A DNA stretch of 64,000 nucleotides from Nitrospirota bacterium (lineage in GTDB: Bacteria; Nitrospirota; UBA9217): contig CAVVUN010000009.1 of NCBI GenBank assembly GCA_963751455.1, positions 32,001-96,000 on the forward strand, read 5' to 3'. A program made the position numbers and the translations under genes. Of this stretch, positions 14,984 through 44,090 are shown piece by piece. How positions within the stretch are numbered: position 1 is the first letter of the stretch; each line of letters begins with the position of its first letter. The notes under the pieces were generated by a model. The model was not told the DNA's origin. It was given only the letters and a program-made list of their open reading frames with translations, and searched no databases.

Positions 14984-15035
14984 ACGAATCCTGCCTTGAT
15001 TCCCGTCTCTGCGGTCATTGATCCCCGCCGCACGA

Positions 15036-15489: not shown

Positions 15490-16155
15490 TTGGGCGCTCT
15501 CATGCACCTTCTTTCAATACGGGTATTAATCGCTATCTTGATTATGTTATGTCCGTTCAGCCTTCGAGCAGAGGTGCGACCTTTGCCCGCTGATTGCACT
15601 TATGTTTTGCAGACCTGGAACGTGAACTCGAAGGCCAGCGTTAAGAGTCAAAAAGTGCGTCATCCCTATAAGGAGCTTACACCGGCTGAAATTGAACCCT
15701 TAACCGGATGTACGATCTGCAGCGAGGACCAGGAAACTATAAGCATACCGCCGCTTCCGCCTTTTTCCGTTTGTTTTAAACTGGCACCGAAAATACGGTC
15801 ATTGGCGGAGTATCTGGTCAAAAAGGGCGAACCACTTCAAACCGTGGTGGCGTATCACGTCATTAAATCACGAGGCCCGGTTGATGTAACAGGGAACAGG
15901 ACTGAGTTCAGCAACCATTCATTCGGAACAGCCATAGATATCAATCCAGAGCTGAACGGCCTGTACGATAACTGCATCAAGTTTGGCCCGGAATGCCGGT
16001 TGATCAGGGGCGGGGAGTGGCGTCCGGGCGTGCCCGGCACGCTCGAAAAAAACGGCGACATTGTCACGATGTTCAAGCAGGCGGGTTTTTTGTGGGGCGG
16101 CGAGATTGCAGGCAAGCAGAAGGACTTCATGCATTTTTCACTGACGGGGTATTAA
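15490..16155 (+). CDS. M15-family (VanY/endolysin-like) secreted metallopeptidase
   Basis: Signal peptide; SNHSFGTAIDIN, WGG, DFMHF; real start may be ATG 15502. Confidence 0.85.
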   Translation: MGALMHLLSIRVLIAILIMLCPFSLRAEVRPLPADCTYVLQTWNVNSKASVKSQKVRHPYKELTPAEIEPLTGCTICSEDQETISIPPLPPFSVCFKLAPKIRSLAEYLVKKGEPLQTVVAYHVIKSRGPVDVTGNRTEFSNHSFGTAIDINPELNGLYDNCIKFGPECRLIRGGEWRPGVPGTLEKNGDIVTMFKQAGFLWGGEIAGKQKDFMHFSLTGY

Positions 16156-16380
16156 CGAGTAAAGAAATTTATGAGGATCGCGTTGTATCGTTACTGAGAA
16201 GTCATTTATTTCGGAGGTAGACTTGTGAAGGCTATAGTTGCTCTGTTCAAAGCACTGCTCGGCACTCTTTCAAAGCTTTTCGGTTCGTTCTCCTGGTCTC
16301 CTCCTCCTTGGTTCCAGTTTCCTATGAATCTCTCCTCGTTAAATTTTTCATTTATTGATATATTTTCCGCACCAGGGAGG

Positions 16381-19300
16381 ATGTCCATGAAGGCGAACCA
16401 TCGGCTCCATTGCCCAGGGATATGCATCTTGTGTGCTCTTGTTCCTCTTCTCCTGTTGTGCGGTTTGTACCCTGCCGGCCTGCATGCTGCGTCCTTGGCT
16501 TCCCAGGCCGTTTTGAGCAAATTCGATCTTCCCGCCCAGGGCCGCCAGGAATCTATCCTCACGATCACGGCATTCGGCCGTTACGCTGTTACCGTTAAGA
16601 GCGACCAGGGCACGGCATTGCAGCTTATTGACCGTATGGCAGGGCCGGGGACGATTTCCGGCGTCGCAGGCGAACGGGACGGCAGGCTCGATCTCTTCCT
16701 GGAACGGGGCGACTACAAGATTGTCACCCACGGTCATGACAAGGCATCCGGGACTATTCGACTGGAAGCGCATCCCTTTTCGGAGAAGAATGCTCCACAG
16801 TCTCCCGCCCTCGTAGAATACAAACTGATCGAGACGGAAGTCAACGATTTCGAGCAGGTGTCCTACTGGCTCGATGTTAAAGAACGCAAACGTGTGGTTC
16901 TCGAAGCAGCGGGACGGAACCTGGCTGATCTGCGCTTATGGAAAGACGGCGCGTGGCTGGTCGATGCCGCACCGGTCATCGAAACGGTCCAACCGAAAAC
17001 TGGTCAGCCTCTGCGGGTTTGTCGTCTGGCACCGGAACTCGAACAGGGCCTGTATCTTCTCACTGCATACGGCGGTGTTGCCCTTCCCTGGGCCGAGGAT
17101 GGTGGTCATCCGTTCTATATGCGCTCCGGCATTCCCGAACTCGGTTCAGTTACCCGCAAACGATTCAAAATAAGCCCATTCGGAACGGACCGCTTCATCG
17201 TTCCCGGCTCAAGCACTTACTTCAGGACGGAACTCCCTGAAGCGCGAGAACTGTCACTTCAATCAGGATGGATTAACTTGAGTGATCCGTTCAGCAATAA
17301 CGGACAAATCAAGAATATCCAGAAAAATTCATTGCCTCCCGTTGCCGAGTTGTTCACCGAGGGGAAAACAAATGCCAAGCACATCGTGACTGTCACCGGG
17401 GAGCCGGGTATGCCCTATGTATTTCAGCACTTCGAATTGAAATATTCATATTCATTTCAAGGCAGCGGAGATTACTGGATATCGAGCGTTCACTCCGGTC
17501 ATCCGCAGGATTCCGTGGACGCAACGGCGATTATGGCATCGGGCAGCGATATGTACGGGATCCGGCCCATGATGGAGCAGACGATCGAGTTGGATCAGAC
17601 AACGGGCTATTCACGCCGTGCAAATCTTCTGGAAACCCTTACGCTTTTTCTCAAGATCAAGACGAAAGGTCGATACCAGATTATTGCGCAGGGCGTTGAG
17701 GCTCGTTTTCTCATCGAACCATTCCTCATATCGCGTCCCCGGGAGTATTCCAGACCGAAAGCGCAGCCGGCAGGATACACATGGGACCTCGATGCCGGCT
17801 ACTATACGCTGACGGTGGATCCCGAGAAGAAGGGAATAATGGATTTGATCATCCGACCTGCTTCCTGGGTCAGCTGGGTATGGGGAAAACTTGACCTCGA
17901 TAAAGGCAAGACCGTACAGCCGGTCAGTGCAGCAATTCGTTTTCCCCGGGTCTCTCTTAACCGGGATCAATGGTATACCGTGTACATGAACCGTCAGCCT
18001 GAAGTTAAAACAGGGTTCGTCGTTCGCCCCCTGCCTCTGGACCTGACGGATCCGCTGCCCGTCACGCAGCGGCCTGATGAATCCGTGATCGTTCCTTTTC
18101 AGGTATCGGAAGAGGGGATCGTCCGGGCGGAGGCCGAGGACGGCTCGCTCATGGATTTGTCCGTTGACAAAGGGCCCTGGCAAAAAACATTCAACGTGGG
18201 AGCAGGAAAGCACTCTGTTTCAGTTCGATTGACTGCAAAAAATACTATCAATTATGCGTTATATGTCGAGCCGCGCAGGCTAAGTGCAGAGACTGGTCTG
18301 CCGGCCATTTCACAAACAGCGCTTGACAGCCTCCCTAAATTCCCGGTCCTCGCAAATACCAAGCCTCTTTTTTTCGATTTAGACCGCAATTCTTCATCGA
18401 CCTTTAACGTACAGGCCGACAAATCGGCCCTTTTCCAAATCCAGTCCACAGGGCTCCTTGCGACGGAAGGCAATCTTCGCAGCAGGACCACGCCGCAATT
18501 TGTGCGGGAATCCGAGAACGGAAAAGGGAGGAACTTCTTTATCCGGCAGTACCTGCATGAAGGAGATTACCAGATAACGGTTGCGAGCAAGGGACAGTCA
18601 AAGGGACACCTGGGCTTGACTATGGAGAAGAGCGGTCTGATTCAAGGCGGGTACCTCACGAACCGCACGCCGGCGCGCCTTTCCCTTCCTGCAGGAAAAG
18701 CTGCAGCGTATCAATTCGTTGTTACGAAAGCAGGCGAATACCGTGTCCGGGCATTCGGTCTCGGAAGAAAGCTGAAGTGGCGGCTCGAGGACAAGGAGGG
18801 CTGGCCGGTTGTCACTCCCAACACAAAGGCGGATATAACCCGCATTTTTGAGAAGGGCACATACCGTTTGATCATTCTTCCCGAAAGCACGGATGCGAAG
18901 ATTGTAACCGTAATCGATCCGGTGAAGCGCGGCCGTCGGTTTAAAGGACATGGCCCTCACGTGTTGCCGTTGGCTCTTCCAGTTGATCATACATGGACCG
19001 AACCGATTTCGGGAAAAGCACGACAGCCAGACAAGTGGAAATTCGAACTTCCCGCCGATGGCGATATATCGATTGAGTTAACGGGAGAGATGCAGGCTGA
19101 CCTTTTAAAAATCAACTCCGACGGAACGGCAACACGGACTGCATTCATTCCGCCGGTACGGGGATGGCAGGGCACCCTGCAGGCCGGCTCCTACCGGATC
19201 GAAGCGGTCTCCATGCGTATCAATAACCAGGCTGCGTATCGATTGGTTGTCTCTCCCCGTTCTCTCATGACCGGTATGAGCCGTGATATCAGTGTCCCAT

Positions 19301-21822
19301 CCGTCGTCCCGATCGCAATCGGGCAGGCGGGAGTGGCTGAATTGTCGTCTTTCGGCGATGTTGACGTAAAGGCTCGTTTGATGATCGATGACGGCACCTT
19401 GATCGCTGAGAATGACGATCGCCCCGATGACTGGAATTTCCATATCGTCACGACTTTGAAACCGGGCAATTATCGATTATATGTCGATCAGTCAGGACCC
19501 GGCCACGGCACGTGCACGGTATCGCTGAGGGTACCGAAGGAAGAGGGGAAAAATGCACTCATCCTGCCGACCAGTGCGAAGATAAAACTAAGCGATGCAG
19601 TTCAAATTTTTCCGCTTACACTTCCTTCCAGGGGAGAGCTCCTGATGCTTTCTGCGCCGGCGAGGGAAAACGTCGGACTTGCAGTGGAAGTCTCCGACCA
19701 GGGGGGATGGAAAACCATCGGAACGACATCGGGCCGTAACACCCACCTTGAGATACCCCTTCTCAATACCCGGCCGTCGATCTCAAATGTCAGATATCGC
19801 CTGCGCATCTGGTCCATGGACTATCGCCATACGTCCGTTGAACTCTCAGCGCAGTTCATTTCGCCTCGCCAATTCAGTGAAAGCGATTTGAAAAAAGGCA
19901 TACACCTGCCGCTTGTCGAGGGATCCAAAACCCCGATTGCGGCTGCAGTCGTGCGGATCGAGCGAGGCGGTTTGCTGCGGATCCCTGAAGAATTCCAACA
20001 TTTGCGCTGGTCTGCAGAGGTGCTCCGTTCCTGCTCACAACCCGAAAATTATCTTCCCGTTCAACACGGCTTTATCTGGATCACCGGAGAAACAACAACG
20101 CGAGGCCCGGCACCTGAGGCAAGGGCAGAACGCGCGGGTTTGGGGTCGGGGGAGGACAAAGCGATCCAGGTCAGAATGAACGGCGGGGAAAATATGCTGT
20201 GCGATCTCGCGGGCGACTGGCGCGGTCCCGTTATGGCAATCGCTTCGTCGCGCATCGGGCGTCCAGCCGCTGAGCTTATAGAGCAGGAAAAAAACGAACC
20301 GGTGAATACCAACCGGCTTGTAGTGGGCGAGCATGGCTCTCTCAGCTTGTCTCTCCATCCGAAAAATCCTGCGGTAAAGCTCTGGGCCGCTTCTCCTGTA
20401 GATGAACCATTTGAAGTGCGACTTCTGCAGATAAGCTTTCCCGCGCCAGAGTCGGCCTCCGCCAAGGAAGGCCTGCACGGTGCAATCGCCGGGAAGAAAG
20501 CGCGGGTGTACGAACTTCCGAATGGGAAAAAACGTATGCGGATTTCTCTTAGCGAAGCCCTTGTTGCGGCACTGCAGAAGGACGATGCCGTCGCAAGCGT
20601 GCATTGGGCTGAGGGAAATGCATTTACGGAAACGTTCGAAACGGATGCAGATCGTCTGCTTCTGCTTCATATGCGGGAGGAAGAGGACCATTTTGCAATC
20701 GAACTATCCCCCCTGATTGCTGATGTTTCTACACGAGCCCTCGCTATCGGAGTTCCCTTCGAAGAGGTCATGCTGAATTCAGGAAGGTTGAGGTTATCCG
20801 TTGATGCAGGTGAAACACGTATCAAAAGAACACTTCATGTCCGGGGTGCAAAGAAGGCCCTCTTTACCGACAAGCTGGGCAATGTCATCCCAGGCAATGA
20901 CATGGATATCGACGAACGGAACGGCGTGCTTATCATCGATCACGGACCCGGTCCGTTGCTCGCCTGGCTTGACAGACCGGGAGAAGAAGCTGCCGACCTC
21001 TGGGCCCTAACCAAGAAGCCCGACAGGACATCCATAACGTTGCCTGCTCTACTGCCCCTGGACGGGAAATCCCACGCGTACCGAATCGACGCCGGCAAAC
21101 CCGTGATGCTCCATGTCCGCAGTGCCACGCCCCTCGCAACCTACCTGGACCGCGGGGACAAAACGCCGGATGTAGAGGTCCATTCCCGGGGGGTCATGCT
21201 CGATGCCTATCTGCCGAGAGGATCTGGAGAAGTTCGGCTGCGCGCCCTAAACGGGGGCCGCATGTCCGGGCAGGTTTCGATTTCCGGGTCTCCGGTCCTG
21301 CCCACTGATGAAGGATTGGGGCCCGAGGTCCTGCTCGCAGCAGGTGCTACGAGATTGTTTTCGTTCACGGTCCGCGAGGAAAGCATGATCGGCGCGGGAG
21401 TGAAGGCTGATTCCGATGCCGTTGATATGGAAATCTTGAACAGCGCTGGAGCGGTTCTTGGCAGGGGCGTCGCCCAGATGCTGCGCCTGAAGCCGGGCGT
21501 CTATTTGATGAAATTGCACGCGTTTGATACCGGGCGGCCGGTAAAAGCGCAGCCTGCACTTGTCGGCCTGAAGACCCCTGATACCGGTCCTCCTCCCGAC
21601 GAGATCACGAAATACCTTCATCCTGAAACAGAAATGCCTGCTGCCTATTCAAGCCGCAGAGGCAATGTGACGCAGGACAGAGCATACCAAAGCCCGAGTG
21701 AACCCGCGTATGAAAGTGACAACCCGGCGCCCGCTCCTGAATCTGAATACGGCGAAGGCATGACTGAGGAAGGCGAACAAACCGTTGATCCGGGAAGTGG
21801 TGAAGGAGAACGAGAACCATGA
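16381..21822 (+). CDS. Giant (~1810 aa) secreted protein with repeated PPC-like beta-sandwich domains and an acidic tail; function unknown
   Basis: GGGAGG RBS before ATG 16381; signal peptide ending GLHA; modules such as DVKARL..DGTLIAENDD..DWNF.I...LKPGNYRL; the ORF is open upstream to 16225. Confidence 0.8.
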   Translation: MSMKANHRLHCPGICILCALVPLLLLCGLYPAGLHAASLASQAVLSKFDLPAQGRQESILTITAFGRYAVTVKSDQGTALQLIDRMAGPGTISGVAGERDGRLDLFLERGDYKIVTHGHDKASGTIRLEAHPFSEKNAPQSPALVEYKLIETEVNDFEQVSYWLDVKERKRVVLEAAGRNLADLRLWKDGAWLVDAAPVIETVQPKTGQPLRVCRLAPELEQGLYLLTAYGGVALPWAEDGGHPFYMRSGIPELGSVTRKRFKISPFGTDRFIVPGSSTYFRTELPEARELSLQSGWINLSDPFSNNGQIKNIQKNSLPPVAELFTEGKTNAKHIVTVTGEPGMPYVFQHFELKYSYSFQGSGDYWISSVHSGHPQDSVDATAIMASGSDMYGIRPMMEQTIELDQTTGYSRRANLLETLTLFLKIKTKGRYQIIAQGVEARFLIEPFLISRPREYSRPKAQPAGYTWDLDAGYYTLTVDPEKKGIMDLIIRPASWVSWVWGKLDLDKGKTVQPVSAAIRFPRVSLNRDQWYTVYMNRQPEVKTGFVVRPLPLDLTDPLPVTQRPDESVIVPFQVSEEGIVRAEAEDGSLMDLSVDKGPWQKTFNVGAGKHSVSVRLTAKNTINYALYVEPRRLSAETGLPAISQTALDSLPKFPVLANTKPLFFDLDRNSSSTFNVQADKSALFQIQSTGLLATEGNLRSRTTPQFVRESENGKGRNFFIRQYLHEGDYQITVASKGQSKGHLGLTMEKSGLIQGGYLTNRTPARLSLPAGKAAAYQFVVTKAGEYRVRAFGLGRKLKWRLEDKEGWPVVTPNTKADITRIFEKGTYRLIILPESTDAKIVTVIDPVKRGRRFKGHGPHVLPLALPVDHTWTEPISGKARQPDKWKFELPADGDISIELTGEMQADLLKINSDGTATRTAFIPPVRGWQGTLQAGSYRIEAVSMRINNQAAYRLVVSPRSLMTGMSRDISVPSVVPIAIGQAGVAELSSFGDVDVKARLMIDDGTLIAENDDRPDDWNFHIVTTLKPGNYRLYVDQSGPGHGTCTVSLRVPKEEGKNALILPTSAKIKLSDAVQIFPLTLPSRGELLMLSAPARENVGLAVEVSDQGGWKTIGTTSGRNTHLEIPLLNTRPSISNVRYRLRIWSMDYRHTSVELSAQFISPRQFSESDLKKGIHLPLVEGSKTPIAAAVVRIERGGLLRIPEEFQHLRWSAEVLRSCSQPENYLPVQHGFIWITGETTTRGPAPEARAERAGLGSGEDKAIQVRMNGGENMLCDLAGDWRGPVMAIASSRIGRPAAELIEQEKNEPVNTNRLVVGEHGSLSLSLHPKNPAVKLWAASPVDEPFEVRLLQISFPAPESASAKEGLHGAIAGKKARVYELPNGKKRMRISLSEALVAALQKDDAVASVHWAEGNAFTETFETDADRLLLLHMREEEDHFAIELSPLIADVSTRALAIGVPFEEVMLNSGRLRLSVDAGETRIKRTLHVRGAKKALFTDKLGNVIPGNDMDIDERNGVLIIDHGPGPLLAWLDRPGEEAADLWALTKKPDRTSITLPALLPLDGKSHAYRIDAGKPVMLHVRSATPLATYLDRGDKTPDVEVHSRGVMLDAYLPRGSGEVRLRALNGGRMSGQVSISGSPVLPTDEGLGPEVLLAAGATRLFSFTVREESMIGAGVKADSDAVDMEILNSAGAVLGRGVAQMLRLKPGVYLMKLHAFDTGRPVKAQPALVGLKTPDTGPPPDEITKYLHPETEMPAAYSSRRGNVTQDRAYQSPSEPAYESDNPAPAPESEYGEGMTEEGEQTVDPGSGEGEREP

Positions 21823-21971
21823 GCCGGCTTGTCATGAGGAGCGAATATACCGAATCGCATTCATCACTCAGAATAGATGCGGGAAGTGATACGAGCGTTG
21901 AAAGACGCCGGGAACCGGTATCGAGCACGATTCATAATCTGCGATATACAGCATTACCAAGGAGAGCAAAC

Positions 21972-24900
21972 ATGCAAAACCGTTTTTCAGGAATGCTTCT
22001 GGCCATGTTGATTCTCGTCACGCCCGTTGTCGTCCGGGGTGAATCCAGGCAGGCAGCGGCGATTATTCGACCGGAATTTGTCACAGAAACCACGATTATC
22101 CCGGAGCATTTTCTTCGGCGTTGGGATCCGGTAACGATTTTCTTTACCCGGGAACGGGGACCGAAGAACGGCGGTCCCGAAGACCATCCGGACAAATACG
22201 TTACCGTGGATACGGATCACCCCGGAGCTTATCGGTGGCTCGACGACAGGACGCTTCAGTTTCAACCTTCCGAACCCTGGCCTTCGCTGTCACGCTTTAT
22301 CTGGACCGTCGACAAAAAAGCCACGGCTCTCTTCACATTGATGGAAGCGCCGGTCACAATGAACCCGGCTGACAAGACGGAGGGACTGGAGCAGGTGAAG
22401 AATATAGCGCTCACCTTTGCAGAGCCGCTCGATCCCCAGGCTTTGGCAAGCATGGTCTCGCTCGAACTGCGGCCTTTGCCCGGCGCAGGATCTGATAAAT
22501 CCCGCTGGCTTACCAAAAACGATTTTACGATCAAAGTCATGGAGCGGCGGTCCCGCTCGGACAAAGCTTCCTACGTGCTCACTCTGAAGGAGCCGATCTC
22601 CCACGGGATCAAGACGATCGTGCATATGCGCCTGGCGCTGGATGACAAGGTTACAGAATCATTTAGAGAGTTTTCTTTTTCCACTGCCGAGCCCTTCCGG
22701 GTCGTGGCCCTCGGAACAAGAGAACGAAGATATCCTGTTACTCCCGAAGGTTCTCATTATTCCCGGGAACAGGCCATTCGCGGCGAATCCTCGGAACGGA
22801 GCGTTATAGTTGATTTTTCGTCTCCGCCGGACCTTGCTGACGACTCCCTGACATTGTCGGGAAGAAACCTTGTCGGATTCGCTCCTGCTGTCCCCCGGCT
22901 TACGTATCGGCTCGAAGGAAGCCAACTGGTCATCGCGGGCGACTTCGCTCGCGACACGCTTTACCGGGTTTCGCTTTCACCGGTCCCGGTCAGCGACAAG
23001 CAGGGAAAGCACCTTGAAATGAAAGGCGCGAGCGACCTGTTCGTGTATTTTCCCCGCAGCCAATCCTACGTCCGGCTGAGAGCCGGGCAGGGCATTGTTG
23101 AACGGTTCGGAAAGCAGTTGATCCCGGTGGAAGGCAGAGGAGAAGAGCGCATAGACCTTCGCATCTATCCAGTGCAGCCGCTAGACCGGTCGTTCTGGCC
23201 TTTTCCCGGCTATCCGCTCGAAACAGATGATGGCAGTCGGCCGCCTGGACCTGGTGAAGAGCCCGAACCGTTTACTGCGCCTGACCAGTCAGCCCGAGCA
23301 GACGAATTAGTCCGCCAGATTTCGATCCTGGGATCGCCGCCTGTCTCGGCACTCGTTGCGCTGCCTCTCAAAAAGGAAGGCGGATCGGCTTCCTTTGGTC
23401 TTGATCTTACGCCGCATCTTGCAAAGCTTTCCGGAAAAGATCAACCCGGCTCATATTTGATCGGTTTGCGAGATCTTGCTGTGGGGAGCAGACGCACATG
23501 GATCCGGCTTCAGGTTACTGACCTTTCACTTACTACGATTGAAGAGCCGGATGCAGTCAAATATATCGTCACATCCCTTCACTCGGCTGAGCCCGTCTCC
23601 AAGGCACGTATACACATCGAAGGCACTCTTTATGATCGCGGTAAACCGTCGTGGATGACGCTTGCAGAGGGGATCACTGACGGGGATGGTATATTCCGCT
23701 GGCGCGCTCCCGGCCGGACCCGCTCAGGCGAGCAGAAAACGGTGCGGCGGATTATAGTGGAGAAGGACAAGGATCTCCTCGTCTTCGATCCCGCAAATCC
23801 GCCTGATGTGTATTTCGACAATCAATGGTCGGTCGACCGGTCACCGTGGCTGCAATGGACCCATGAATCACTTGAAGGGCGCGGAGCGCAGCCGCAAATG
23901 GTGAGCCACATTTTCACGGACCGTCCCGTATATCGCCCAGAAGAGGAAGTTCATATCAAAGGATATCTCCGCAAACGGGAGAAAGGACATCTTCAGCCGG
24001 TCAAGACGGGCGGCTGGCTGATCGTCGAGGGCCCGGGTGATGTTTCCTGGAAATATCCGGCGACCCTGACCGACGTGGGCAGCTTCTACCATGCTTTTTC
24101 TGAAAAAGATCTTCCCACGGGAACGTACTCGGCGCACCTCGAAAACCAGGACCGTACAGAAACGTATGGTCGGGTTACCTTCCAGATGGAGGCGTATCGA
24201 CTCCCGCTTTTCGAGGTCAATCTGCACGCCGCGGACCAGGTTTCGCTGGACAAAGAATTCGAGGTGAAACTTGCAGCCTCCTATTATGCGGGCGGCAAAG
24301 TAGGCGGCCGGCCCGTGGAATGGCGCGTAACCCAGTATCCTTTTGCATGGACTCCCAGGAAACGGGAGGGGTTCCTTTATTCATCAGACGGCCGTTTTTC
24401 CCGGACTGAACGGTTTCAGGCGTCGCCCCGTCTCGAAAAACAGGATACGACGGACGAAAACGGTTCCGCGTCGATCATGCTCAATCCTGCCCTGGAACTG
24501 ACTGCGCAGCCCCGGACCTACATGGTCGAAGCGACGGTCACGGGAGCGGACGATCAGACAGTGACAGCTTCAAAATCGATTTCCGCACTTCCTGCATTTG
24601 TTCTCGGACTGAAGGTGCCTCGTTATATCGAGAAGGCAAAAGAGATCGCACCGGAGATCATTGTCGTGGGACCGGATGACTCGCTGCTCAAGGACAAAGA
24701 AGTGACGGTCCGGCTTCTGCGGCGGGAGTGGCACTCGGCGCTCAAGGCGAGCGACTTTTCTGACGGCGTTGCCCGATATGTAACCGACGTGGTTGATGAA
24801 AAGATTTCTGAAAAGACGATCAGAAGCGGAGCGGAGCCCGTCAAAACAACGTTCCCGGTTCCGAAAGCCGGGGTATACATTGTCGAACTGGAAGCGCACG

Positions 24901-27794: not shown

Positions 27795-27890
27795 CAAGGT
27801 GCAGCAGATGTAAAATCGATCTTGCCTATACGCCGGAGAGAAGTCATAAATAGAGAGCCACGGAGATAGGCCTAAATAAGGAGGAATCAT

Positions 27891-29120
27891 ATGAAAAGAG
27901 GATTGTTCGTTGCGATTGCCGTATTCGTTCTATTTGCCGGTATTTCCTTTGCCGACGACTGGAACCTGGTAAAGAATGTGAAACGGCTGGAGCGTGTATC
28001 TCCCGATTATCCGGACGATAAGGACATCGACAAGAAGTTTCTTGACGTTCTCGATCTAACAGAGAAGACGAAGACCAACCCCGAAGTGTATCAGGCGCTA
28101 AAAAAGATTGCATCAATGCCTTCTTTGTCACAGAGCAAATACATGGATTCCTTTCTGTACTTCATGCTCGTCAAGTCATCATCGCTGTACAAGACGGGAA
28201 CAAGTGAGCCCGACTTCTGGCTGGGCCTTCTCAATTCTTATGACAAAAGCCCTCATCTCCTTGCTGCGCATCTTGTACGGATGAAACTCGCGGCGAAAAA
28301 TTCGTCTGACGTCCGCAGGGAGGCGCAGATCATTGCGGACTGGGTCAAAGCGCAAAAAAACGAGATGAAGGTCCGCGCGCCGGAATACACCGGCAACGTT
28401 CTGCTCGGTTACAAACCCCGTGTTTCTTTTGCTGAAGGAGAGTACCTCAAACTCTATAAACTCTCTTATTATATAGAGACTGTTACTCCTCCAGCCGGAT
28501 TTCTCGAAGACGACACGTATGTTTCCGTTCTTTCAAAGATTAAGGAAGGCCGCGAGGACATCTTGACCGAGATGGCGGCCATTTACCGCAAGATGGGAAA
28601 GCGAAAGGAAGCATCGGATATCCTTTTTCAGCATGCTATGCTGAAAGCGAATGCTAAGGATTTCCAACGGGCAAAGACACTCCTTGATGACGCTGTCAGG
28701 TTCAACCCGGAAAACGCCGCCGCGAAGAAGGAACGGGACAGGATAAAGCTTGAATTGACTTATCAATCGCTTGAACCAGCGGTCCCGGCTGCCGCGTCGG
28801 CGTCCGAGTCCGTTCAGGAAAAACAGGCAGAACCGGCCGCTGTCCCTGACCAATTGAAAAACGTGAATGGGTATCTGATTCCGGCCGATCGCATAATAGC
28901 CGAATCCGAGCTTCTGGGGAAAAGCAGAGCGGAACTTCGGGTAATGCGGAATGAAATTTTTGCCCGTCATGGAAAGATCTTTGAATCCGCGGACCTCAAC
29001 GATTATTTTTCTCAGAAGTCATGGTATACTCAAAATCCGAACTACTCGGACACTCTTTTGTCCGATATTGATAAAGAAAATATCAGAATCATTCGGGAAA
29101 CTGAGAACAGAGCACAATGA
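27891..29120 (+). CDS. Secreted TPR + YARHG domain protein
   Basis: Signal peptide ending SFA; TPR-like helices (DAVRFNPENA); LRVMRNEIFARHG..YF..KSWY. Confidence 0.88.
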   Translation: MKRGLFVAIAVFVLFAGISFADDWNLVKNVKRLERVSPDYPDDKDIDKKFLDVLDLTEKTKTNPEVYQALKKIASMPSLSQSKYMDSFLYFMLVKSSSLYKTGTSEPDFWLGLLNSYDKSPHLLAAHLVRMKLAAKNSSDVRREAQIIADWVKAQKNEMKVRAPEYTGNVLLGYKPRVSFAEGEYLKLYKLSYYIETVTPPAGFLEDDTYVSVLSKIKEGREDILTEMAAIYRKMGKRKEASDILFQHAMLKANAKDFQRAKTLLDDAVRFNPENAAAKKERDRIKLELTYQSLEPAVPAAASASESVQEKQAEPAAVPDQLKNVNGYLIPADRIIAESELLGKSRAELRVMRNEIFARHGKIFESADLNDYFSQKSWYTQNPNYSDTLLSDIDKENIRIIRETENRAQ

Positions 29121-29183
29121 AATTCAAAATCGGCCTTGGGATAAAATCAACAACAGCTTCTTAAATACGAGAGTCCGAGCACT

Positions 29184-31598
29184 ATGCTATGTCGATTGAT
29201 TCATTTTGAAAAAAAGCAGACCGCTCTACTAGCTTTAGCAGGAGTTTTTTTCCTCGCGTTGCTGCTCGTGCTTACCGGCATTGCGTACCACCGCGCCCAC
29301 TTGACATCACCTGACCCTACCTATTTCCTGCGCGACCGGCATGGCGCGTTCCTTGGCGAGGTTGGTGCCCCTGTTGACGGTGAGTACGGCTATTGGGAGC
29401 TGGAAACCATGCCGCCGCGCGTGGCAGCGGCAACCCTCGCCGTCGAAGACCGGAGGTTCTGGAACCATCCCGGGGTCGATGTACTTGCTGTTGCCAGGGC
29501 CTTGTATCAGAATACCATTCGCCTGAAACGGTCTTCCGGCGCATCGACGATCGCCATGCAGGTGACGCGCATGCAGAATCCAGGCTCCCGAAGCTATCTC
29601 AGGAAAGCAGTGGAAGCAATGACGGCGTTCTTTATTACGGCCCGGTTCAACCGCGAGGATATTCTGAAACACTATCTTTGCATCGTCCCGTATGGAAACC
29701 GGATCCACGGCATAGCGTACGCCGCACGCCGCTATTTTGACAAGCCGGTGGATGATCTCAGCTGGGCTGAAACTGCTTTTCTGACCGCAATTCCTCAAGC
29801 CCCGAAACGCTTGAATCCTTTTACGGAACAGGGGAAGAAGCGCGCGGCCCTCAGGGGAAAACGCATCCTGGACCTGCTATATCGTGACAAAGCGCTGAAC
29901 AGGGAAGAGTACGAACTCGCCTGTCTCCAAATTGAGGATCTTGCGGTTCCGCGACCGGGCATCAGGCCTGAACAGGCCATGCATGCGTTGCTCAGGATGG
30001 AGAGCATGCTGAAAGACAAGTCAGTGCAGCTTCAACCCCAGACGGGTCGGCTGGTCACGACCACACTTGACCTGGACTTGCAAAATGAAATGAGCCGACT
30101 CGTGTACGAGACAATAAGAAAATGGGATGCTGCGGGCGCACGAAATGCTGCAGCCATTATCGTGGATCGTGAAAGCAACGAGATCCTGTCGTGGATCGGG
30201 TCTACCGATTATTTTAACGAGTCCCATTCGGGAGCAATCGATTACGGGGATGTTCCACGGTCACCGGGCAGCGCGCTAAAACCGTTCTTCTATGCTCTTG
30301 CTCTTGAATCGCGCGACATAACGCCCTCAACGATTCTGAACGATCTGCAGCGGGGTCCGGGTGGGATCGTGAATGCCGACGCATTATTCATGGGACCCGT
30401 TCTGCCTCGCGTTGCTCTTGCTAATTCCCGAAATGTACCTGCAGCGGCGCTCCTGGAACAAATCGGCATTGAAAAGGGATATGATTTTCTTCGCGTTCTC
30501 GGCCTGCACCATGGCGAAGAGCCTGCGAGCCGGTACGGCGTGGGCATGTCGATCGGAAATTTTCCGGTTACGCTCGAAAAACTCGTACGCGCGTATTCCG
30601 TATTGTCGCGAGAAGGCCGTCTCGACGATCTGGTATGGTTCAAGGGGCAGACGAAAACGGCATCGCGACGCGTTCTGTCAGAAGACACAACCAGGCAAAT
30701 TGCACTCTTTCTTTCCGATCCGCTTGCGCGGATGCCCGGATTTTCGCGCATGAGTGCGCTCGAGTTTCCTTTTCCTGTTGCAATTAAAACCGGCACTTCA
30801 TCGCGCTTTCGGGACGCGTGGGCCTTGGCATTTTCCGTCCGCTATCTCGTAGGCGTATGGGTAGGGGACCCGGATTTCCAGCCCATGAACCATCTTACCG
30901 GCTCGACATCTGCTGCGGAACTTGTTAAAAATATATTGACCACCCTGCACGCTGATCAGCAGACCGGATTAAATGATCTGTCCTTCCCGCCGCCCCGAGG
31001 CTTCAAAGCGGCGCGAGTGTGTGCCCTGACAGGGAACCTGGCAACTGATGCCTGCGATCGGGTGCTCCTCGAATGGTTCAGGCCATCGGAATACCCGGTC
31101 AATCACTGCTCGGTACATGTCCGGATCGCGATTGACGGTCGAACCGGCATCCCGGCGTTGTCGACGACACCTCGTGAGTTCATAACCGTCAGGACGTTTG
31201 TCGATCTCCCTCCACGATATGCCGACTGGGCTGCGGCAGCCGGGCTCAGTATGCCGCCCAAAAGGCCGGTTGACAATGCACTGTTCAAACCGGGTTCAGA
31301 GGAAGCGCTGCTTTCCCTTCGCGATAAAAAGGTTCTTGTAAATATCGTTTCCCCGGAAAACGGCCTGCGCCTGATTCGCGACCCTGAAACGCCAGAAGAC
31401 CAGGCAACACTGGCATTAAGGGCTGTTGTTGATCCCGTTGTTCCGCAACTGGTGTGGTATGTGGACGGGAAACCCTTCCAGGTTGCGGACTATCCCTACA
31501 CAGCGCGTCTTGCGCTCACTCCCGGGGAGCACACGATACAGGCAGGTTTTCCTGATGCGCCTTTTTCTTCAAGACGGGTCACAATAATTGTCCAGTAA
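29184..31598 (+). CDS. pbpC: Penicillin-binding protein 1C
   Basis: EDRRFWNHPGVD, GASTIAMQ, RSPGSALKPF (SxxK), SRN, KTGTS and a C-terminal Ig-like domain; lies downstream of A2M. Confidence 0.93.
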   Translation: MLCRLIHFEKKQTALLALAGVFFLALLLVLTGIAYHRAHLTSPDPTYFLRDRHGAFLGEVGAPVDGEYGYWELETMPPRVAAATLAVEDRRFWNHPGVDVLAVARALYQNTIRLKRSSGASTIAMQVTRMQNPGSRSYLRKAVEAMTAFFITARFNREDILKHYLCIVPYGNRIHGIAYAARRYFDKPVDDLSWAETAFLTAIPQAPKRLNPFTEQGKKRAALRGKRILDLLYRDKALNREEYELACLQIEDLAVPRPGIRPEQAMHALLRMESMLKDKSVQLQPQTGRLVTTTLDLDLQNEMSRLVYETIRKWDAAGARNAAAIIVDRESNEILSWIGSTDYFNESHSGAIDYGDVPRSPGSALKPFFYALALESRDITPSTILNDLQRGPGGIVNADALFMGPVLPRVALANSRNVPAAALLEQIGIEKGYDFLRVLGLHHGEEPASRYGVGMSIGNFPVTLEKLVRAYSVLSREGRLDDLVWFKGQTKTASRRVLSEDTTRQIALFLSDPLARMPGFSRMSALEFPFPVAIKTGTSSRFRDAWALAFSVRYLVGVWVGDPDFQPMNHLTGSTSAAELVKNILTTLHADQQTGLNDLSFPPPRGFKAARVCALTGNLATDACDRVLLEWFRPSEYPVNHCSVHVRIAIDGRTGIPALSTTPREFITVRTFVDLPPRYADWAAAAGLSMPPKRPVDNALFKPGSEEALLSLRDKKVLVNIVSPENGLRLIRDPETPEDQATLALRAVVDPVVPQLVWYVDGKPFQVADYPYTARLALTPGEHTIQAGFPDAPFSSRRVTIIVQ

Positions 31599-31605
31599 GA
31601 CTGCA

Positions 31606-31670
31606 TACCCTAAAAAATACCCCGTTTTATTTTCTTTATATCAATTATCAATTCTATTATACTTTGGTTG
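31606..31670 (+). repeat. ~65-bp promoter-like direct repeat, copy B
   Basis: taccctaaaaaataccccg...ttatactttggttg. Confidence 0.7.
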
Positions 31671-31864
31671 TAATTCTTTGATCTTCCATATTCGCGCCTA
31701 TTTGTTTTACGGACTGCAAATCTGAAGACTTTTTTTTCAAAAATATTAGTTGCTGGTGGCTTATGTAGATGGATGTTTTTTATGAATCATGCGGAGAGGA
31801 TGCAAGATAGCGGACGTAGTAGCGAAAGATTTTGATATTACTGAACTGAACAGGAGGTGTTGTC

Positions 31865-32443
31865 ATGAGTACTATAGGCGAGGGGATGAGCGGTCTGGAG
31901 ATGTTCTTTCTGATATGCGCTCTTATCGGCGGGGGACTCTTTGTAGTCAGGTTCGTGATCCAGCTCTTTGGCGGCAGCCACACCGACGGTGACATGGATA
32001 TCCAGGTAGGTCATGCCGATGTGGACCATGTGGATGCTGATGTCAGTTTCAAGCTGCTCACTCTCCAGGGGTTGACCGCTTTTTTTATGATGTTCGGCCT
32101 CGTTGGTTTTGCAATGCTGCGGGAAAGCCGAACCGGCAGCGGGGTTGCCCTGGTCAGCGCCCTTGCTGCCGGGCTGGGAACGGTATGGCTCATCGGCAAG
32201 ATATTTACCTCGGTCAAGAAGCTCCAGTCCAGCGGGACCATTGACAACGCTGATGCGATCGGCGAACACGGAACAGTGTCTCTTACGATCCATGCAAAAG
32301 GGACAGGGAAGGTGCTTGTCACGATGAAAGACCGGCCCCGCGAGTTCGAGGCTGTGGCGAAGAACGGCGAAGAGATCAAGACCGGCGAACGGGTCAAGGT
32401 CCTGGAAGTCAACGGGAGCATGGTAATTGTCGGAAAGATATAA
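31865..32443 (+). CDS. NfeD-like membrane protein (flotillin partner)
   Basis: TMs plus a C-terminal OB-like region (IGEHGTVSLTI..G.GKV..EIKTGERVKVLEV); adjacent to an SPFH gene. Confidence 0.85.
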   Translation: MSTIGEGMSGLEMFFLICALIGGGLFVVRFVIQLFGGSHTDGDMDIQVGHADVDHVDADVSFKLLTLQGLTAFFMMFGLVGFAMLRESRTGSGVALVSALAAGLGTVWLIGKIFTSVKKLQSSGTIDNADAIGEHGTVSLTIHAKGTGKVLVTMKDRPREFEAVAKNGEEIKTGERVKVLEVNGSMVIVGKI

Positions 32444-32510
32444 AAGAGGAAACACCGGAAACAAAATTTAAATCCGAGCGAGCAAAAGAACGGTAACTAA
32501 CAGGGTTTTC

Positions 32511-32715
32511 CCTAACCCGGACAAGCCGGAACTAAAACCTTGGAACCGCGAAGGCGCGAAGGTCGCGAAGAAAACCTTGCAAGTCTTGAATTAAAACAAA
32601 ATCTTTGTTTTGATGTCCTTCGCGTTCGCTTGTGCCCAGCGCATGTGAGTGCTTGCCGCGAATGCAGGGCATCGCGCCTTCGCGGTAAATATTCTTCCCA
32701 TTTTGAGAAGGATTT
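32511..32715 (+). repeat. Composite palindromic element with conserved outer ends, CGCGAAGG arms and a nested 43-bp element (32628-32671)
   Basis: cctaacccggacaagccggaactaaaacctt...ttcttcccattttgagaag; both ends are shared with 44091-44256. Confidence 0.8.
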
Positions 32716-32753
32716 GATTTGTAACAGACTAAACAGATATTAAAGGAGGTCTT

Positions 32754-34307
32754 ATGTTCAACATGGGTTTATGGGTCCTGCCGATCGCGGCACTGATCAT
32801 ACTTGTAGTATCAACGGTTGTGTTCCTGGCATCGCGGTACAAACGGTGTCCCTCGGACATGATCCTCGTGGTGTACGGAAAGGTTGGGGAAGGGCAGTCG
32901 GCCCGGTGCATCCACGGCGGAGGCGCCCTGGTTTGGCCGCTGATCCAGGACTCGGCGTACATGAGCCTCACCCCGATCACCATCAGCATCCCGCTCCAGA
33001 ACGCGCTTTCGCTCCAGAACATCCGCATTAACGTCCCGAGCACCTTCACCGTCGGCATCAGCGTTGATAAGAGCACCATGAACAACGCTGCTGAACGGCT
33101 CCTGAACCTTCCGCCCCAGCGCATTGAGGACATGGCCAAGGAGATCATCTTCGGCCAGTTGCGCCTGACCGTGGCATCGCTTACGATCGAGCAGATCAAC
33201 CAGGACCGGGAAAGCTTTCTCGAGTCCATCAGGAAGAACGTGGAGCCGGAACTGAACAAGATCGGCCTGTACCTCATCAACGTGAACATCACGGACATTA
33301 CCGACGAATCTGACTACATTCAGAGCATCGGGAAGAAGGCGGCCTCGGAAGCCATTAACCGCGCCCGCGTCGATGTCGCGGAGCAGGACAAGATGGGCGC
33401 GATCGGCCAGGCCGTGGCCAACCGGGACAAGGAGATCAAGGTCGCCGAGAATACGGCAGAGTCGGAAAAGGGAAAGAAGCGGGCCGATGCGGACCGCCGC
33501 GTATTCGTACAACAGCAGGAGACTGCGGCATCGATCGGCGAAGCGGACGCCAACCGGGAGAAGGAGATCCGGATCGCCGAGAACGTGGCCATGTCCGAAA
33601 AGGGAAAGAAAAAAGCTGAAGCTGACCGCCGCGTGTATGTGCAGGCGCAGGAAGCGGAAGCAGTCACGGGCGAGAACAAGGCCAAGGCTGATATCGCGGC
33701 AACCAATGCCGAACTCGCCATGCGTCAGGCAGAAGCGCTCCAGAAGGGCGAGGTCGCCCGGCGCGAGGCTGAGGTCGAAATCCAGAAAGCCCAGTACCGC
33801 GCGGAACAGGAACGCCTGAACGCAGAGGAAGTGGTAAAGCAAGAGATAGGCAAAAAGAAGATTGAGATTGCAGCAGAGGCAGAGGCAGAGAAGACGCGCA
33901 GAGAAGCAAAGGGTGTAGCGGACGGCATCCTGCTCAAGTACGAAGCAGAGGCCAAGGGTATCAGGCAGGTGCTCGAGAGCAAGGCCGCAGGGTATCAGAA
34001 CCTGGTCAAGAGCTGCAACGGCGACGCCAGGGCGGTGGCAACGCTGCTCATGACCGAGAAGATCGAGCAGATCGTGGCCATGCAGGTGGAGGCTATCAAG
34101 AACATCAAAATCGACAAGGTCACGGTCTGGGATTCAGCAGGCGGCCATGGCGACGGCAGTTCCTCAACGTCGAGCTTCCTTTCGAGCCTCGTGCGAAGCA
34201 TCCCGCCGCTCCAGGATGTGGCCAGGATGGCGGGAGTCGAACTTCCGAGTTATCTTGGGGCGATGACGGAGAAGACAGAAGGGGAGAAGGAAGGCAAGAC
34301 AAATTGA
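32754..34307 (+). CDS. Flotillin/SPFH domain protein
   Basis: N-terminal TM, RYKRCPSD, GQLRLTVASLTIEQIN, AEA-rich coiled coil, IKIDKVTVWD. Confidence 0.95.
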   Translation: MFNMGLWVLPIAALIILVVSTVVFLASRYKRCPSDMILVVYGKVGEGQSARCIHGGGALVWPLIQDSAYMSLTPITISIPLQNALSLQNIRINVPSTFTVGISVDKSTMNNAAERLLNLPPQRIEDMAKEIIFGQLRLTVASLTIEQINQDRESFLESIRKNVEPELNKIGLYLINVNITDITDESDYIQSIGKKAASEAINRARVDVAEQDKMGAIGQAVANRDKEIKVAENTAESEKGKKRADADRRVFVQQQETAASIGEADANREKEIRIAENVAMSEKGKKKAEADRRVYVQAQEAEAVTGENKAKADIAATNAELAMRQAEALQKGEVARREAEVEIQKAQYRAEQERLNAEEVVKQEIGKKKIEIAAEAEAEKTRREAKGVADGILLKYEAEAKGIRQVLESKAAGYQNLVKSCNGDARAVATLLMTEKIEQIVAMQVEAIKNIKIDKVTVWDSAGGHGDGSSSTSSFLSSLVRSIPPLQDVARMAGVELPSYLGAMTEKTEGEKEGKTN

Positions 34308-39393: not shown

Positions 39394-40087
39394 AGCTTTG
39401 GATCGTCGAAAGCGGTCGTATTCGTATTCATCAAAGTGAAGAGACTGAAGAATAACAAATCGCCGGCACACCTCGCCCGTATCGTAGTTCCCGTAATCAC
39501 AGTCCTCCTTCTTTTTCGGTTCCTCTCGCCACCTCTCAGGGACACCGTCAGTTTCTCCCAGGCGATCTATGACCGGAGCGGAAAGCTGCTTCGTCTGACG
39601 CTCTCCCGGGATGATAAGTACCGCCTCTGGCTACCGCTTAAATCGATATCTCCTGTCCTGGTCAAAGCGACGCTCTTGCACGAAGACAAATGGTTCCGAT
39701 TTCATCCGGGTGTGAGTCCAATCTCTCTTGCCCGTGCTGTCTGGCATACCTACATCAAGAAGGACCGGAAAATCGGCGGGTCAACGATCACGATGCAGCT
39801 TGCTCGTATCCGCTATGAAATTAACTCGCGAACGATCACAGGCAAGGCGGCGCAGATATTTGCTGCTCTCTGGTTGGAGCTTCTTTATTCCAAGAATGAT
39901 ATCCTCGAAGCTTATCTCAACCTTGTGCCGTATGGCTTGAATATCGAAGGGGCAGGGGCGGCAAGCCTTATTTACTTTTATAAGAACGCAGACAAGCTTA
40001 TTCTGTCTAACGCGATTACCTTGAGCGTGATTCCGCAGAGCCCGGCTCGCAGAATTCCTACTTATCTGGAAGTAAGTAATCGGAAAG

Positions 40088-40197
40088 AAAATCCTCCTCA
40101 ATCCCCCTTTTCGAAAGGGGGAGAAAACAATACCCCCCTTCATTCCCCCCTTGCCAAGAGGGGAAGAGGGGTAACAACGGGGGGAGAGGGGGGATTT
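40088..40197. repeat. In-frame CCCCCTT/AAGGGGG nested hairpin in pbpC2
   Basis: Encodes NPPQSPFSKGGE...PLAKRGRG..GGEGGF; inverted arms aaatcc.../...ggattt. Confidence 0.8.
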
Positions 40198-40620
40198 GCA
40201 GGTAAAGACCTTCAGGCTGCCTGCGTCGCACTTTTCGCGAAATGGATCGAGAAAAATCCGAAGGACGGGGACCAAAAGGCTTTCATGGACATGCCCGTTG
40301 TTCTCAAACGTCCTTCTGACCTGCCGTTCCTGGCTCCGCACTTTGTGAACGAGGTGCGTAAGCTCAATCCCTTTGACCCCGTGCTTCATACCACGCTCGA
40401 TCTTAAACTGCAGAAACTTATTGAGCGGCATGTCCGCAGCTACGTTGATGGGAACAGGCAGAAGGGAATCAATAATGCTGCCGTGCTTCTTGCCGACGCT
40501 CGTACAATGGAAGTTAGGTCCCTGATCGGGTCGGCAAATTTCTTTGATCCCAGGATCGACGGACAGGTGAATGGCGCCTAGGCTAAACGTTCGCCCGGCT
40601 CTGCACTCAAGCCTTTTATC

Positions 40621-40789
40621 CTAAAAACGGCATTTGAACACGGATGAACACGGAAACAGCGGATCAAAACAATGTGATAGAGCAAAAAGCCATCTCGCCT
40701 TTTGGGTGAATCCATTACTGTTCGTAACTTCCTATAAATCCGTGTTGATCAGATTTTATCCGTGTCCAACTGCTTTTTTCAGGTTTATC
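40621..40789 (+). mobile_element. 169-bp palindromic non-autonomous element, copy 2
   Basis: Removing it restores AAG CCT TTT ATC TAC GGT (KPFIYG); TTTATC at both junctions; identical to 11640-11808. Confidence 0.93.
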
Positions 40790-41176
40790 TACGGTTTAGG
40801 CATAGACCAGGGGATTATCCATCCTCTCACCATGCTGAAGGATGCGCCCATGAGCTTCGGTGCCTATAATCCTGAGAACTTTGATAATGATTTTGCCGGA
40901 CCGATCAAGGCATGGGATGCCCTGGTTAAAAGCAGGAATGTTCCGGCCGTTTATATCGTATCGCGTCTTTCTCCGCCTGGATTGCACGGATTTCTGCTCA
41001 AGGCCGGGATTACGCGCATGAAGGACGAATCCTTTTACGGGATGTCTCTGGCTTTAGGAAGTTCGGAAGTGACCATGGAGGAGCTGGTAAAACTCTATGC
41101 CATGCTTGCGAATGGGGGAGTTCTAAAGCCGCTCAAATTTTTCAGTGCATCTTTCTCTATCAGTAAAGTCTCGCAC

Positions 41177-41227
41177 CGTCATTCCGGGCTTGACCCGGAA
41201 TCCAGTGATAATCTTGACAAGACGCTG
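41177..41227. repeat. REP/RPE-like palindrome, left half (right half at 43133-43157); target of the intron
   Basis: cgtcattccgggcttgacccggaatcca...ctg|gattcccgctttcgcgggaatgacg; the joined frame reads RHSGLDPES...LDSRFRGND. Confidence 0.85.
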
Positions 41228-43132: not shown

Positions 43133-44090
43133 GATTCCCGCTTTCGCGGGAATGACGAACAAGATAATACGCGACTTCTCAGCAAGGAAGCCTCATACCT
43201 CGTGCTGGACATGCTCGCAACGAACCCGCCTCCCTATCAGGGATTCCGCAATGAATGGTTGCGAGATTCGACTAAGGTTCCATGGAAAACAGGCACTTCC
43301 TTCGGTTTCCGTGACGCGTGGTCAATCGGAATCGTCGGTCCTTATGTGCTTGCGGTCTGGATTGGGAACTTCGACGGGGAAGGCAACCCTGCATTCATAG
43401 GACGGGAGGCTGCTGCTCCATTGTTTTTTGAGATCATTGACTCCCTGAAATCACAGGATTCCGAGATAGGTAATTTCTCGGGTCACGGTCTCGCTGACTT
43501 GAACCTGTCCAAAGTGGAGGTCTGTGCTCTATCCGGCGGTCTTCCGGGACCCGACTGCGCTAACCGGGTCTCCACCTGGTTCATTCCAGGCAAGTCGCCC
43601 ATTGTGAAATGTGATGTTCACAGAAGAATATACATTAATACGCGAACTGGCCTGCGAGCCTGCATTGACGGCGCGCCGGGGACCAGGTCCGCGGTATATG
43701 AGTTCTGGTCCTCAGATCTTCTGGCGATCTTCCTTCAGAGCGGCATTACGCGTCGCGTGCCTCCGCCTTATGAACCGGGATGCAGCATGGAGAAAACATC
43801 GACAAAGGGGGCCGGCCCTCAAATCACCTCTCCCCGGGAAGGGGTGGTCTACAGCCTAAGGGCGGCATCGCTGAAGGACGAGCGGGTACCGCTGACCGCA
43901 GTTACTGATGCGGATACGCGTATTGTGCATTGGTTTGCAAATGAAGAGTATCTGGGCTATTCCGAGAGCGGAAAGACGTTCTTCTGGACGCCCAGGTCAG
44001 GGAAGTTCGCGATGCGCGCTGTTGACGACCAGGGCCGATCAGCTGTGAGGGATGTGGTCACAAGGATCGTAGATTAGTTACTAAAAAGTA

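Follow-up and report, generated by a model that had tools for sequence, protein, structure and literature searches.

Within the window (the whole 64,000-nucleotide stretch of DNA that was analysed), seven open reading frames on the + strand occupy positions 15490..34307 in a single orientation, each at the place where an earlier note on this DNA had located it (Table 1). Pfam searches of the run returned Peptidase_M15_4, the bacterial alpha-2-macroglobulin (A2M) domain set, YARHG, Transgly/Transpeptidase/BiPBP_C and Band_7, in agreement with the proposed labels M15 peptidase, A2M, YARHG protein, PBP1C and flotillin, whereas three further labels stayed below the Pfam cut-offs: NfeD fell slightly short (27.3 bits against 29.1), and both the TPR match in the YARHG protein (17.6 against 25) and the PPC match (PF04151) in the giant protein (19.3 against 25.9) were weak. 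The PPC score was also below the cut-off in all 26 giant homologues tested, but a PPC-like fold of the giant is backed by the structure models described below.

Table 1. Features of the A2M locus, in positions of the window.
Feature	Position	Strand	Remarks
M15 peptidase, outside module	15490..16155	+	
5' stub of second A2M gene	16225..16340	+	FSWSPPPW N-terminus, own GGAGG site, in frame with giant
Giant protein, core	16387..21822	+	1,811 aa; ATG 16381 possible alternative start
Giant protein features			Signal-peptide-like N-terminus, ~17 predicted PPC/collagen-binding-domain-like beta-sandwiches, acidic tail
Thioester A2M, core	21972..27794	+	1,940 aa from likely start; long, non-lipidated
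Bait-containing span of A2M	25476..25682	+	69 aa; counterpart is E. coli YfhM 913-981
CTEQ thioester motif	26313..26324	+	YPYG immediately before
YARHG protein, local add-on	27891..29120	+	
PBP1C (pbpC), core	29184..31598	+	EDRRF, SxxK, SRN and KTG motifs intact; N-terminal membrane anchor
NfeD-flotillin pair, outside module	31865..34307	+	
Broken second pbpC	39436..44077	+	In-frame stop 40579-40581, group II intron insertion

The A2M and its bait region

The open frame of the A2M runs from 21819 and overlaps the stop of the giant gene, but translation most likely starts at the ATG at 21972, which is preceded by an AAGGAG site, and not at 21819. The Pfam domains bMG10, A2M_BRD, MG2, A2M and bMG6 all scored above their cut-offs, and a profile match runs collinear with residues 759-1287 of E. 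coli YfhM (E 2e-37); with phmmer, the protein was too distant to retrieve solved A2M structures. Elsewhere in the genome, bMG10 has a second match (C12), below the cut-off and within a different repeat protein. The thioester motif is intact, as the earlier note had read it, within HYPYGCTEQ (26298-26324), and ETMY matches the C-terminal EXMY motif. CxEQ is kept in 106 of 109 giant-linked A2Ms; the thioester is lost and the giant retained at L037, L042 and L115, and CxEQ is also absent in L118 and L131. A signal sequence without a lipobox Cys was likewise confirmed, with no evident lipobox among the 45 homologues shown and a lipobox-like pattern in 1 of 120 A2M homologues. A missing lipid anchor does not alone demand a giant partner, since long A2Ms encoded beside pbpC at L138-L142 lack both the lipobox and the giant.

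The segment GNLPFAENPGGDEGSEESLLEK before VRKNF is present and acidic, but the bait is not very short: measured between fixed anchors, the bait span has the same length, 69 aa, in the window and in E. coli YfhM, and ranges from 66 to 77 aa across all 51 A2Ms aligned. The description of this A2M as bait-poor thus fails, and the role of the giant as a trigger for such an A2M therefore becomes baseless. A reading in which an A2M short of bait relies on the giant as its trigger, for instance through the acidic tail of the giant serving as bait in trans, could draw on the E/G/A/D-rich variable part of the bait and on the acidic tracts of many giants (tail only in 102 of 240, internal only in 13, both in none); it is nevertheless very improbable, given the ordinary span, the Lys, Arg, Phe and Leu that the bait holds besides acidic residues, and the 125 of 240 giants that lack an acidic tract by the same test.

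A three-gene module and its surroundings

The linkage of giant and A2M, on which the case of the earlier note depended, is strongly supported. The giant is encoded immediately before this A2M family across several phyla, the module is carried by a named cultured genus, Dongia (L028), and a metagenome scan with a single-protein query gave four close loci. The A2M gene lies directly 3' of the giant in all 56 loci (of 71) whose sequence continues for more than 45 bases past the giant, and pbpC follows the A2M in 43 of the 50 loci reaching past it (in the other seven it is absent from the fetched flank) and is present in 37 of 40 further loci. Across 485 genomes of three groups, the same 67 carry both the A2M clade and the giant, a two-way match with no orphan in any group (15 of 151, 42 of 251 and 10 of 83 genomes), counts that include related genomes and are hence non-independent; the giant is absent from 38 and 4 genomes having only other A2M types. 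In a FastTree phylogeny, all 31 A2Ms linked to a giant fall into a single clade (support 1.0), separate from 20 others. With heuristic start choice, the stop-to-start gap between giant and A2M is at most 30 nt in 24 of 38 loci. In addition, the pairwise distances of the two proteins correlate with r 0.97 over 33 triplets (0.94-0.97 in length-matched blocks), and the correlation of either protein with PBP1C is weaker (0.89 and 0.92). The conserved unit consists of three genes only: giant, A2M and pbpC.

Assembly of all seven genes into one envelope defence complex, on flotillin microdomains, is highly unlikely, and the run as a conserved unit is largely refuted. The genes are co-oriented and envelope-related, and YARHG and M15 genes are found repeatedly in the vicinity of A2M loci, but among 111 giant-bearing loci (some genomes are counted twice, and only 33 loci extend past pbpC far enough to reveal NfeD) M15 occurs in one, YARHG in two, and NfeD and flotillin in none, which leaves the seven-gene complex of the earlier note unsupported. 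In relatives, these four genes lie beside other A2M types or apart from any A2M. For example, in G005 and G022 the YARHG gene is directly 3' of an A2M of another type, the M15 peptidase is upstream of a second A2M type in L079 and G023 (L082, L152), and the stretches fetched around the NfeD-flotillin pair in G023, G005 and G022 contain no A2M or pbpC. The three relatives having this flotillin lack the giant, and a promoter-like site at 31635-31663, of a kind whose matches are near chance level, sits between pbpC and nfeD.

The M15, YARHG, NfeD and flotillin genes are outside the conserved module, and the rest of the run is a local patchwork. The stub in front of the giant matches the beginnings of the second-type A2M genes of L079, L082 and L091 at 76-83% DNA identity, and no full copy of this second A2M gene was found in the genome. 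The broken second pbpC is followed by recO, as in G023, whose gene order (M15, second A2M, second pbpC, recO) frames the module in the window. The M15 gene and the 5' stub fused to the giant open reading frame derive from a second, mostly deleted A2M locus, and the broken second pbpC is a leftover of that locus. Annotation should treat the bait as ordinary and leave the flanking genes out of the system.

Architecture and proposed role of the giant

The giant is a 190 kDa partner from an unnamed family, whose members, fragments counted, fall into 757 clusters at 50% identity with E values up to 1e-30. Nothing was retrieved for it from PADLOC or NCBIfam, sequence searches against solved structures gave no genuine match, and literature searches on A2M or LprI context turned up no description of such a partner. 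The protein is predicted to be exported via a cleaved signal peptide and to form an array of ~17 PPC-like jelly-roll (beta-sandwich) domains, in which no enzyme domain and no peptidase domain was found. Two models of the giant are all beta (pLDDT 91.8 and 88.9, pTM 0.81 and 0.77), and single domains match the collagen-binding/PPC domains of collagenases with, for example, Z 13.2 (rmsd 1.9, 98 aligned) and Z 12.4 (rmsd 2.0, 97 aligned); several predicted domains show this fold at Z 12-13, and other domains are barely covered. No known structure matches the giant as a whole (best TM-score 0.15). The homologue survey shows a fixed, conserved length and order of domains, and a search of proteins of 3,174-5,000 aa, which is a weak test, revealed no fusion of giant and A2M. 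Three candidate views of the protein were rejected: Foldseek matches of the giant models to A2M and complement C5 are repeat-domain artefacts (TM-scores 0.05-0.10, rmsd ~30 or above), descent as an expanded YfaP (DUF2135) has no support (hhalign probability below 2% on YfaP), and the acidic tail is not an essential element, being absent in the 125 giants noted above. Since it has no lipobox and, by hydropathy, no mature transmembrane segment, the giant is not itself a membrane anchor.

Single domains of the giant also match the periplasmic lysozyme inhibitor PliG (Z 12.1, rmsd 2.1, 95 aligned; and Z 10.9), and an N-terminal LprI domain occurs in 4 of 26 giant homologues picked for extra length. 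Together with the pbpC linkage, which suggests the cell wall, these matches are consistent with a giant that does not bind the A2M but works next to it, as a multivalent inhibitor of, or decoy for, enzymes that degrade the wall (lysozymes and endopeptidases), so that the module would combine a hydrolase decoy, a protease trap and a repair synthase. We consider this unlikely. PliG equals the PPC/collagen-binding domains in one model comparison and ranks below them in the other, so the fold does not single out PliG, and the LprI domain has no demonstrated inhibitor activity, which PMC7933661 credits to the MliC domain. Moreover, an independent inhibitor is expected to occur sometimes without this A2M clade, and not one such case was seen in the 485 genomes.

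Secreted proteases use PPC and collagen-binding domains as modules for substrate binding. The fold matches of the giant to such domains, and the lack of a membrane anchor in either protein (2 of 240 giants and the 1 of 120 A2Ms have a lipobox-like pattern, with hydropathy in agreement), could point to a secreted or surface-exposed, complement-like pair whose PPC/CUB-like array would recognise a target surface or protein, so that the A2M thioester is delivered there and tags it covalently. This seems quite unlikely, however, because the giant is kept at the loci where the thioester or CxEQ is lost, its length and domain order are conserved rather than hypervariable, its neighbourhoods contain no recurrent secretion or outer-membrane gene, and linkage to the inner-membrane PBP1C favours the periplasm. 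A bolder proposal, which we regard as doubtful, is that giant and A2M make up a complement-like two-component machine of ~400 kDa, whose rigid ~17-domain array would capture attacking enzymes or surfaces and present them to the thioester; the pair would then be a third bacterial macroglobulin class, one that has a recognition subunit of its own and has moved between phyla as a whole.

We favour, with a probability of about one half, a giant that binds and scaffolds its A2M clade as the Mag proteins do for MagD of P. aeruginosa; of the roles suggested in the earlier note, scaffold is still the best inference from genomic context, and trigger is not, given the normal bait. Each of the proteins MagA, MagB and MagF forms a 1:1 complex with MagD and makes it more stable (PMC5764988), and this precedent is an analogy only, since the giant has no detectable homology to YfaP, YfaQ, YfaT or YfaA of E. 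coli (domain profiles at most 2.4 bits). By that analogy, giant and A2M would form a 1:1 complex of ~400 kDa in the periplasm, in which the predicted exported, non-catalytic array of ~17 domains would bind its own A2M clade and keep it stable and positioned as a larger protease trap. As with the E. coli and Salmonella A2Ms, cleavage of the bait by a protease would change the shape of the A2M and allow the thioester to capture the protease, while PBP1C would repair the wall. The case for partnership comes from genomic context, and non-touching proteins of one pathway would give the same pattern. Complex prediction for A2M 412-925 with giant 648-1056, segments picked from clade-specific conservation and covering less than one third of each protein, gave scores of 0.12 and 0.00, where the mark is 0.32, and speaks neither for nor against binding. 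Covariation (MI-APC) over 109 pairs, 31 of which join partners solely by the equal size of their DNA pieces, was uninformative because a few clade-splitting columns dominated within and between the proteins.

Comparison with known A2M systems

Bacterial A2Ms were reportedly first described by Budd et al. in 2004. The literature divides them into a thioester form with PBP1C, for which a defence role is a hypothesis, and a form that has no thioester and is part of a multi-gene complex. In type I (E. coli YfhM/ECAM-PbpC and Salmonella Sa-A2M), the motifs described in PMC4498604 are the CxEQ thioester, flanking tyrosines and a C-terminal EXMY. The A2M of the window shares with this type CxEQ after YPYG, an EXMY-type motif, the same MG/bait/TED/C-terminal MG domain set, an equal bait span and a downstream pbpC, here one gene removed by the YARHG gene. 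On these sequence features it would be a type I A2M, with trapping predicted, although it lacks the lipobox of ECAM; the lipobox marks ECAM and not the whole of type I, because other pbpC-linked A2Ms also lack it. It differs from type I in being ~290 aa longer, in forming a separate clade and in always having the giant gene upstream, a gene absent from the type I literature examined.

Type II systems (magABCDEF of P. aeruginosa and yfaA-yfaT-yfaS-yfaQ-yfaP of E. coli) likewise co-encode an A2M with exported partners, which bind 1:1 and stabilise it, MagB tying the A2M to the inner membrane (PMC5764988). They have neither thioester nor pbpC, whereas CxEQ is found in 106 of the 109 members of the present clade; their partners are of 26-60 kDa, none of the partner domains DUF2135, DUF2300, DUF1175 and DUF2138 matched in the run, and the giant has no transmembrane helix. 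Single domains of the giant superpose on PPC/collagenase collagen-binding domains and related jelly rolls (PliG, GOLD and CUB) with Z 11-13 and rmsd ~2, but its ~17 domains stand alone as one protein, in which no peptidase domain was found. In the present module, a thioester and PBP1C are joined by an obligate partner of 190 kDa. This strictly linked protein, the third of the set, gives a direct way of testing how free-living bacteria hold, localise or aim the trap.

Linkage of the giant protein to one A2M clade

Scoring of 7,992 candidates gave 396 homologues of the giant, a predicted exported protein of ~1,800 residues (1,811 aa from ATG 16387); the top 120 are 1,731-1,926 aa long and 41-77% identical to it, and a profile of its first half matched 757 clusters at E <=1e-30. 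Of 71 giant loci, 15 have no more than 45 bases beyond the match to the giant, and in the other 56/56 the next gene encodes an alpha-2-macroglobulin (A2M) of a single clade, which bears out the linkage proposed in the earlier note. The PBP1C gene, pbpC, is present in 43 of the 50 loci reaching beyond the A2M, and record titles assign giant loci to Nitrospirae, Elusimicrobia, Acidobacteria, alpha-, beta-, gamma- and deltaproteobacteria and Myxococcota. The order giant then A2M was kept in 40 fetched regions (pbpC seen in 37), which overlap in part with the genomes of the 71-locus set, and the two genes overlap or lie <=30 nt apart in 24 of 38 loci.

For the reverse test, clade membership was assigned in three genome samples by identity alone (>=35%; other A2Ms, 24-32%). 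Clade A2M and giant occurred in identical genomes (15/151, 42/251 and 10/83), with no orphan of either kind in the three samples, although these counts are not independent trials because the sampled genomes are related and often incomplete. When the C-terminal 1,330 residues were used to build an A2M tree rooted on E. coli YfhM, all 31 giant-linked A2Ms formed one clade (support 1.0) separate from 20 other A2Ms. Pairwise distances of giant and A2M correlated at 0.97, compared with 0.89 and 0.92 for the pairings with PBP1C, an excess also seen in length-matched blocks; PBP1C catalytic motifs are retained in 33/33 aligned copies.

Composition and origin of the locus

All seven co-oriented ORFs reported previously were found, and their names agree with Pfam/NCBIfam, except that the PPC, TPR and NfeD assignments score below cut-offs. 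Membership of all seven in one complex, as then proposed, is very improbable: across 111 giant loci, M15 recurs once, YARHG twice, and NfeD with flotillin never, only 33 of the 111 running far enough beyond pbpC to reveal NfeD.

Features of the window (forward-strand coordinates)
Feature	Position	Strand	Basis or remark
S8 subtilase	14081-15100	-	divergent from M15 gene; no evident signal peptide
M15 peptidase	15490-16155	+	ORF, Pfam/NCBIfam
Stub of second A2M type	16225-16386		GGAGG site, GTG; in frame with giant
Giant	ends 21822	+	ORF; PPC match below cut-off
A2M	ends 27794	+	ORF, Pfam/NCBIfam
YARHG	27891-29120	+	ORF; TPR match below cut-off
PBP1C	29184-31598	+	ORF, Pfam/NCBIfam
NfeD	31865-32443	+	ORF; NfeD match below cut-off
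Flotillin	32754-34307	+	ORF, Pfam/NCBIfam
Coiled-coil protein	35272-35970		232 aa; ~7 near-identical 14-residue repeats; no Pfam family above cut-off
PIN-domain gene, IS630-type and IS200-type transposases	36915-38994		between flotillin and broken pbpC
Second pbpC	39436-44077		pseudogene; in-frame TAG 40579-40581, insertion near 40624-40770
Apparent inserted palindromic repeat	40070-40200		inside second pbpC; in-frame, C-rich and G-rich runs (by eye)
Group II intron (Rfam match)	41228-41306	-	in second pbpC; reverse transcriptase split over two frames
Two tandem cobalamin riboswitches	45497-46114		5' of long cobalamin synthesis operon

The S8 subtilase may resemble the cyanobactin PatA/PatG proteases. 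Starting at GTG 16225, 52 codons in frame with the giant and 5' of it correspond to the N-terminus of another A2M type at 76-83% DNA identity, and in loci L079 and L082 the match extends back into an M15 gene. Were GTG 16225 used, the giant would gain a 54-residue extension ahead of its signal; the close homologues compared lack it. The relative G023 has the order M15, second A2M type, second pbpC, recO, and the window has M15, stub, the giant-A2M-pbpC module with add-ons, broken second pbpC, recO. We infer that the module lies within an older A2M-pbpC locus that lost its A2M by deletion. YARHG lies 3' of a third A2M type in the relatives G005 and G022, and NfeD-flotillin has no A2M gene close by in the regions retrieved for all three relatives. 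In close relatives (L009 1147-24557, L079 and L006) two A2M systems are clustered side by side; in L009, pilin-like genes separate the giant from the second A2M.

Predicted structure and possible role of the giant

Modelled with AlphaFold2, residues 40-960 and 905-1755 are all beta at high confidence (pLDDT 91.8 and 88.9; pTM 0.81 and 0.77), with ~17 domains estimated by counting strand groups; the high pTM suggests that the modelled domains are held in a fixed arrangement rather than as loose beads. By hhalign (probability 90-97%), nine domains each have one or more relatives within the giant, whereas several others have none. Structural comparison, which tested part of each model well, ranked collagenase collagen-binding and PPC domains highest, followed closely by PliG, GOLD and SID1 domains. 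Four longer homologues (P0266, P0333, P0336, P0358) carry an N-terminal LprI (PF07007) domain, the inhibitor role of which is unproven (PMC7933661). No catalytic domain was found in the giant by Pfam, NCBIfam or fold search. That it is a hydrolase decoy acting in parallel with the A2M is conceivable but unlikely, and a complement-like surface receptor seems somewhat less likely still. The giant has no transmembrane segment beyond its signal, and 2 of 240 homologues have a lipobox-like pattern. Of those 240, 102 carry an acidic low-complexity tail and 13 such a tract as an internal insert, with no overlap between the two groups; 125 have neither. Comparison with E. coli YfaP, YfaQ, YfaT and YfaA revealed no homology.

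By analogy, we favor, at a probability of about one half, a binding scaffold that, next to PBP1C in the periplasm, would stabilize, position or enlarge the clade A2M trap. The chemistry of this protease trap would be that of E. coli A2M (PMC4498604 and PMC3328433). The partner role of the giant is modelled on the P. aeruginosa Mag proteins, where MagA, MagB and MagF each bind MagD 1:1 and MagD stability and membrane location require MagB (PMC5764988). Two findings constrain this view. Long lipobox-less A2Ms also adjoin pbpC without a giant, so the giant does not just stand in for an anchor. Five clade A2Ms (L037, L042, L115, L118, L131) have lost CxEQ yet retain giant and pbpC, so the role of the giant is independent of covalent capture.

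The A2M, its bait region and known systems

The likely A2M start is ATG 21972, preceded by an AAGGAG site. Its N-terminus is signal-like and without a lipobox, as in homologues (signals were assessed by eye, pattern and hydropathy), and its CTEQ thioester motif lies within HYPYGCTEQ; the lipobox-less signal and CTEQ both agree with the earlier note. No other A2M was found in the source genome. Elsewhere in that genome (G000:C12:547440-559626), a 2,277-codon repeat-rich ORF precedes a 1,702-codon ORF with OmpA-like motifs (by eye); considered as a second A2M, this region gave a weak bMG10 match and is not an A2M.

The earlier note had called the segment before VRKNF very short and acidic, and the A2M bait-poor. 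A profile of 46 clade members is collinear with YfhM through the bait region, and the span between anchors DP and G is 69 residues in both the window and YfhM (913-981, which takes in the disordered bait residues 923-963 given in PMC4498604). The bait thus aligns at normal length, an outcome that the note itself had named as contrary. The span is 69-77 across 109 giant-linked A2Ms and 66-77 across all 51 A2Ms of several types; its variable part is acidic and Gly/Ala-rich, the whole also containing Lys, Arg, Phe and Leu. With a bait of this length in the A2M, provision of bait in trans by the giant is highly doubtful.

No published description of the giant partner was found in the openly accessible literature searched. 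By the features compared, the window A2M is of type I with a giant partner undescribed in that literature: it shares the type I bacterial features except for the lipobox of E. coli A2M (ECAM), whereas those of type II A2Ms are lacking.
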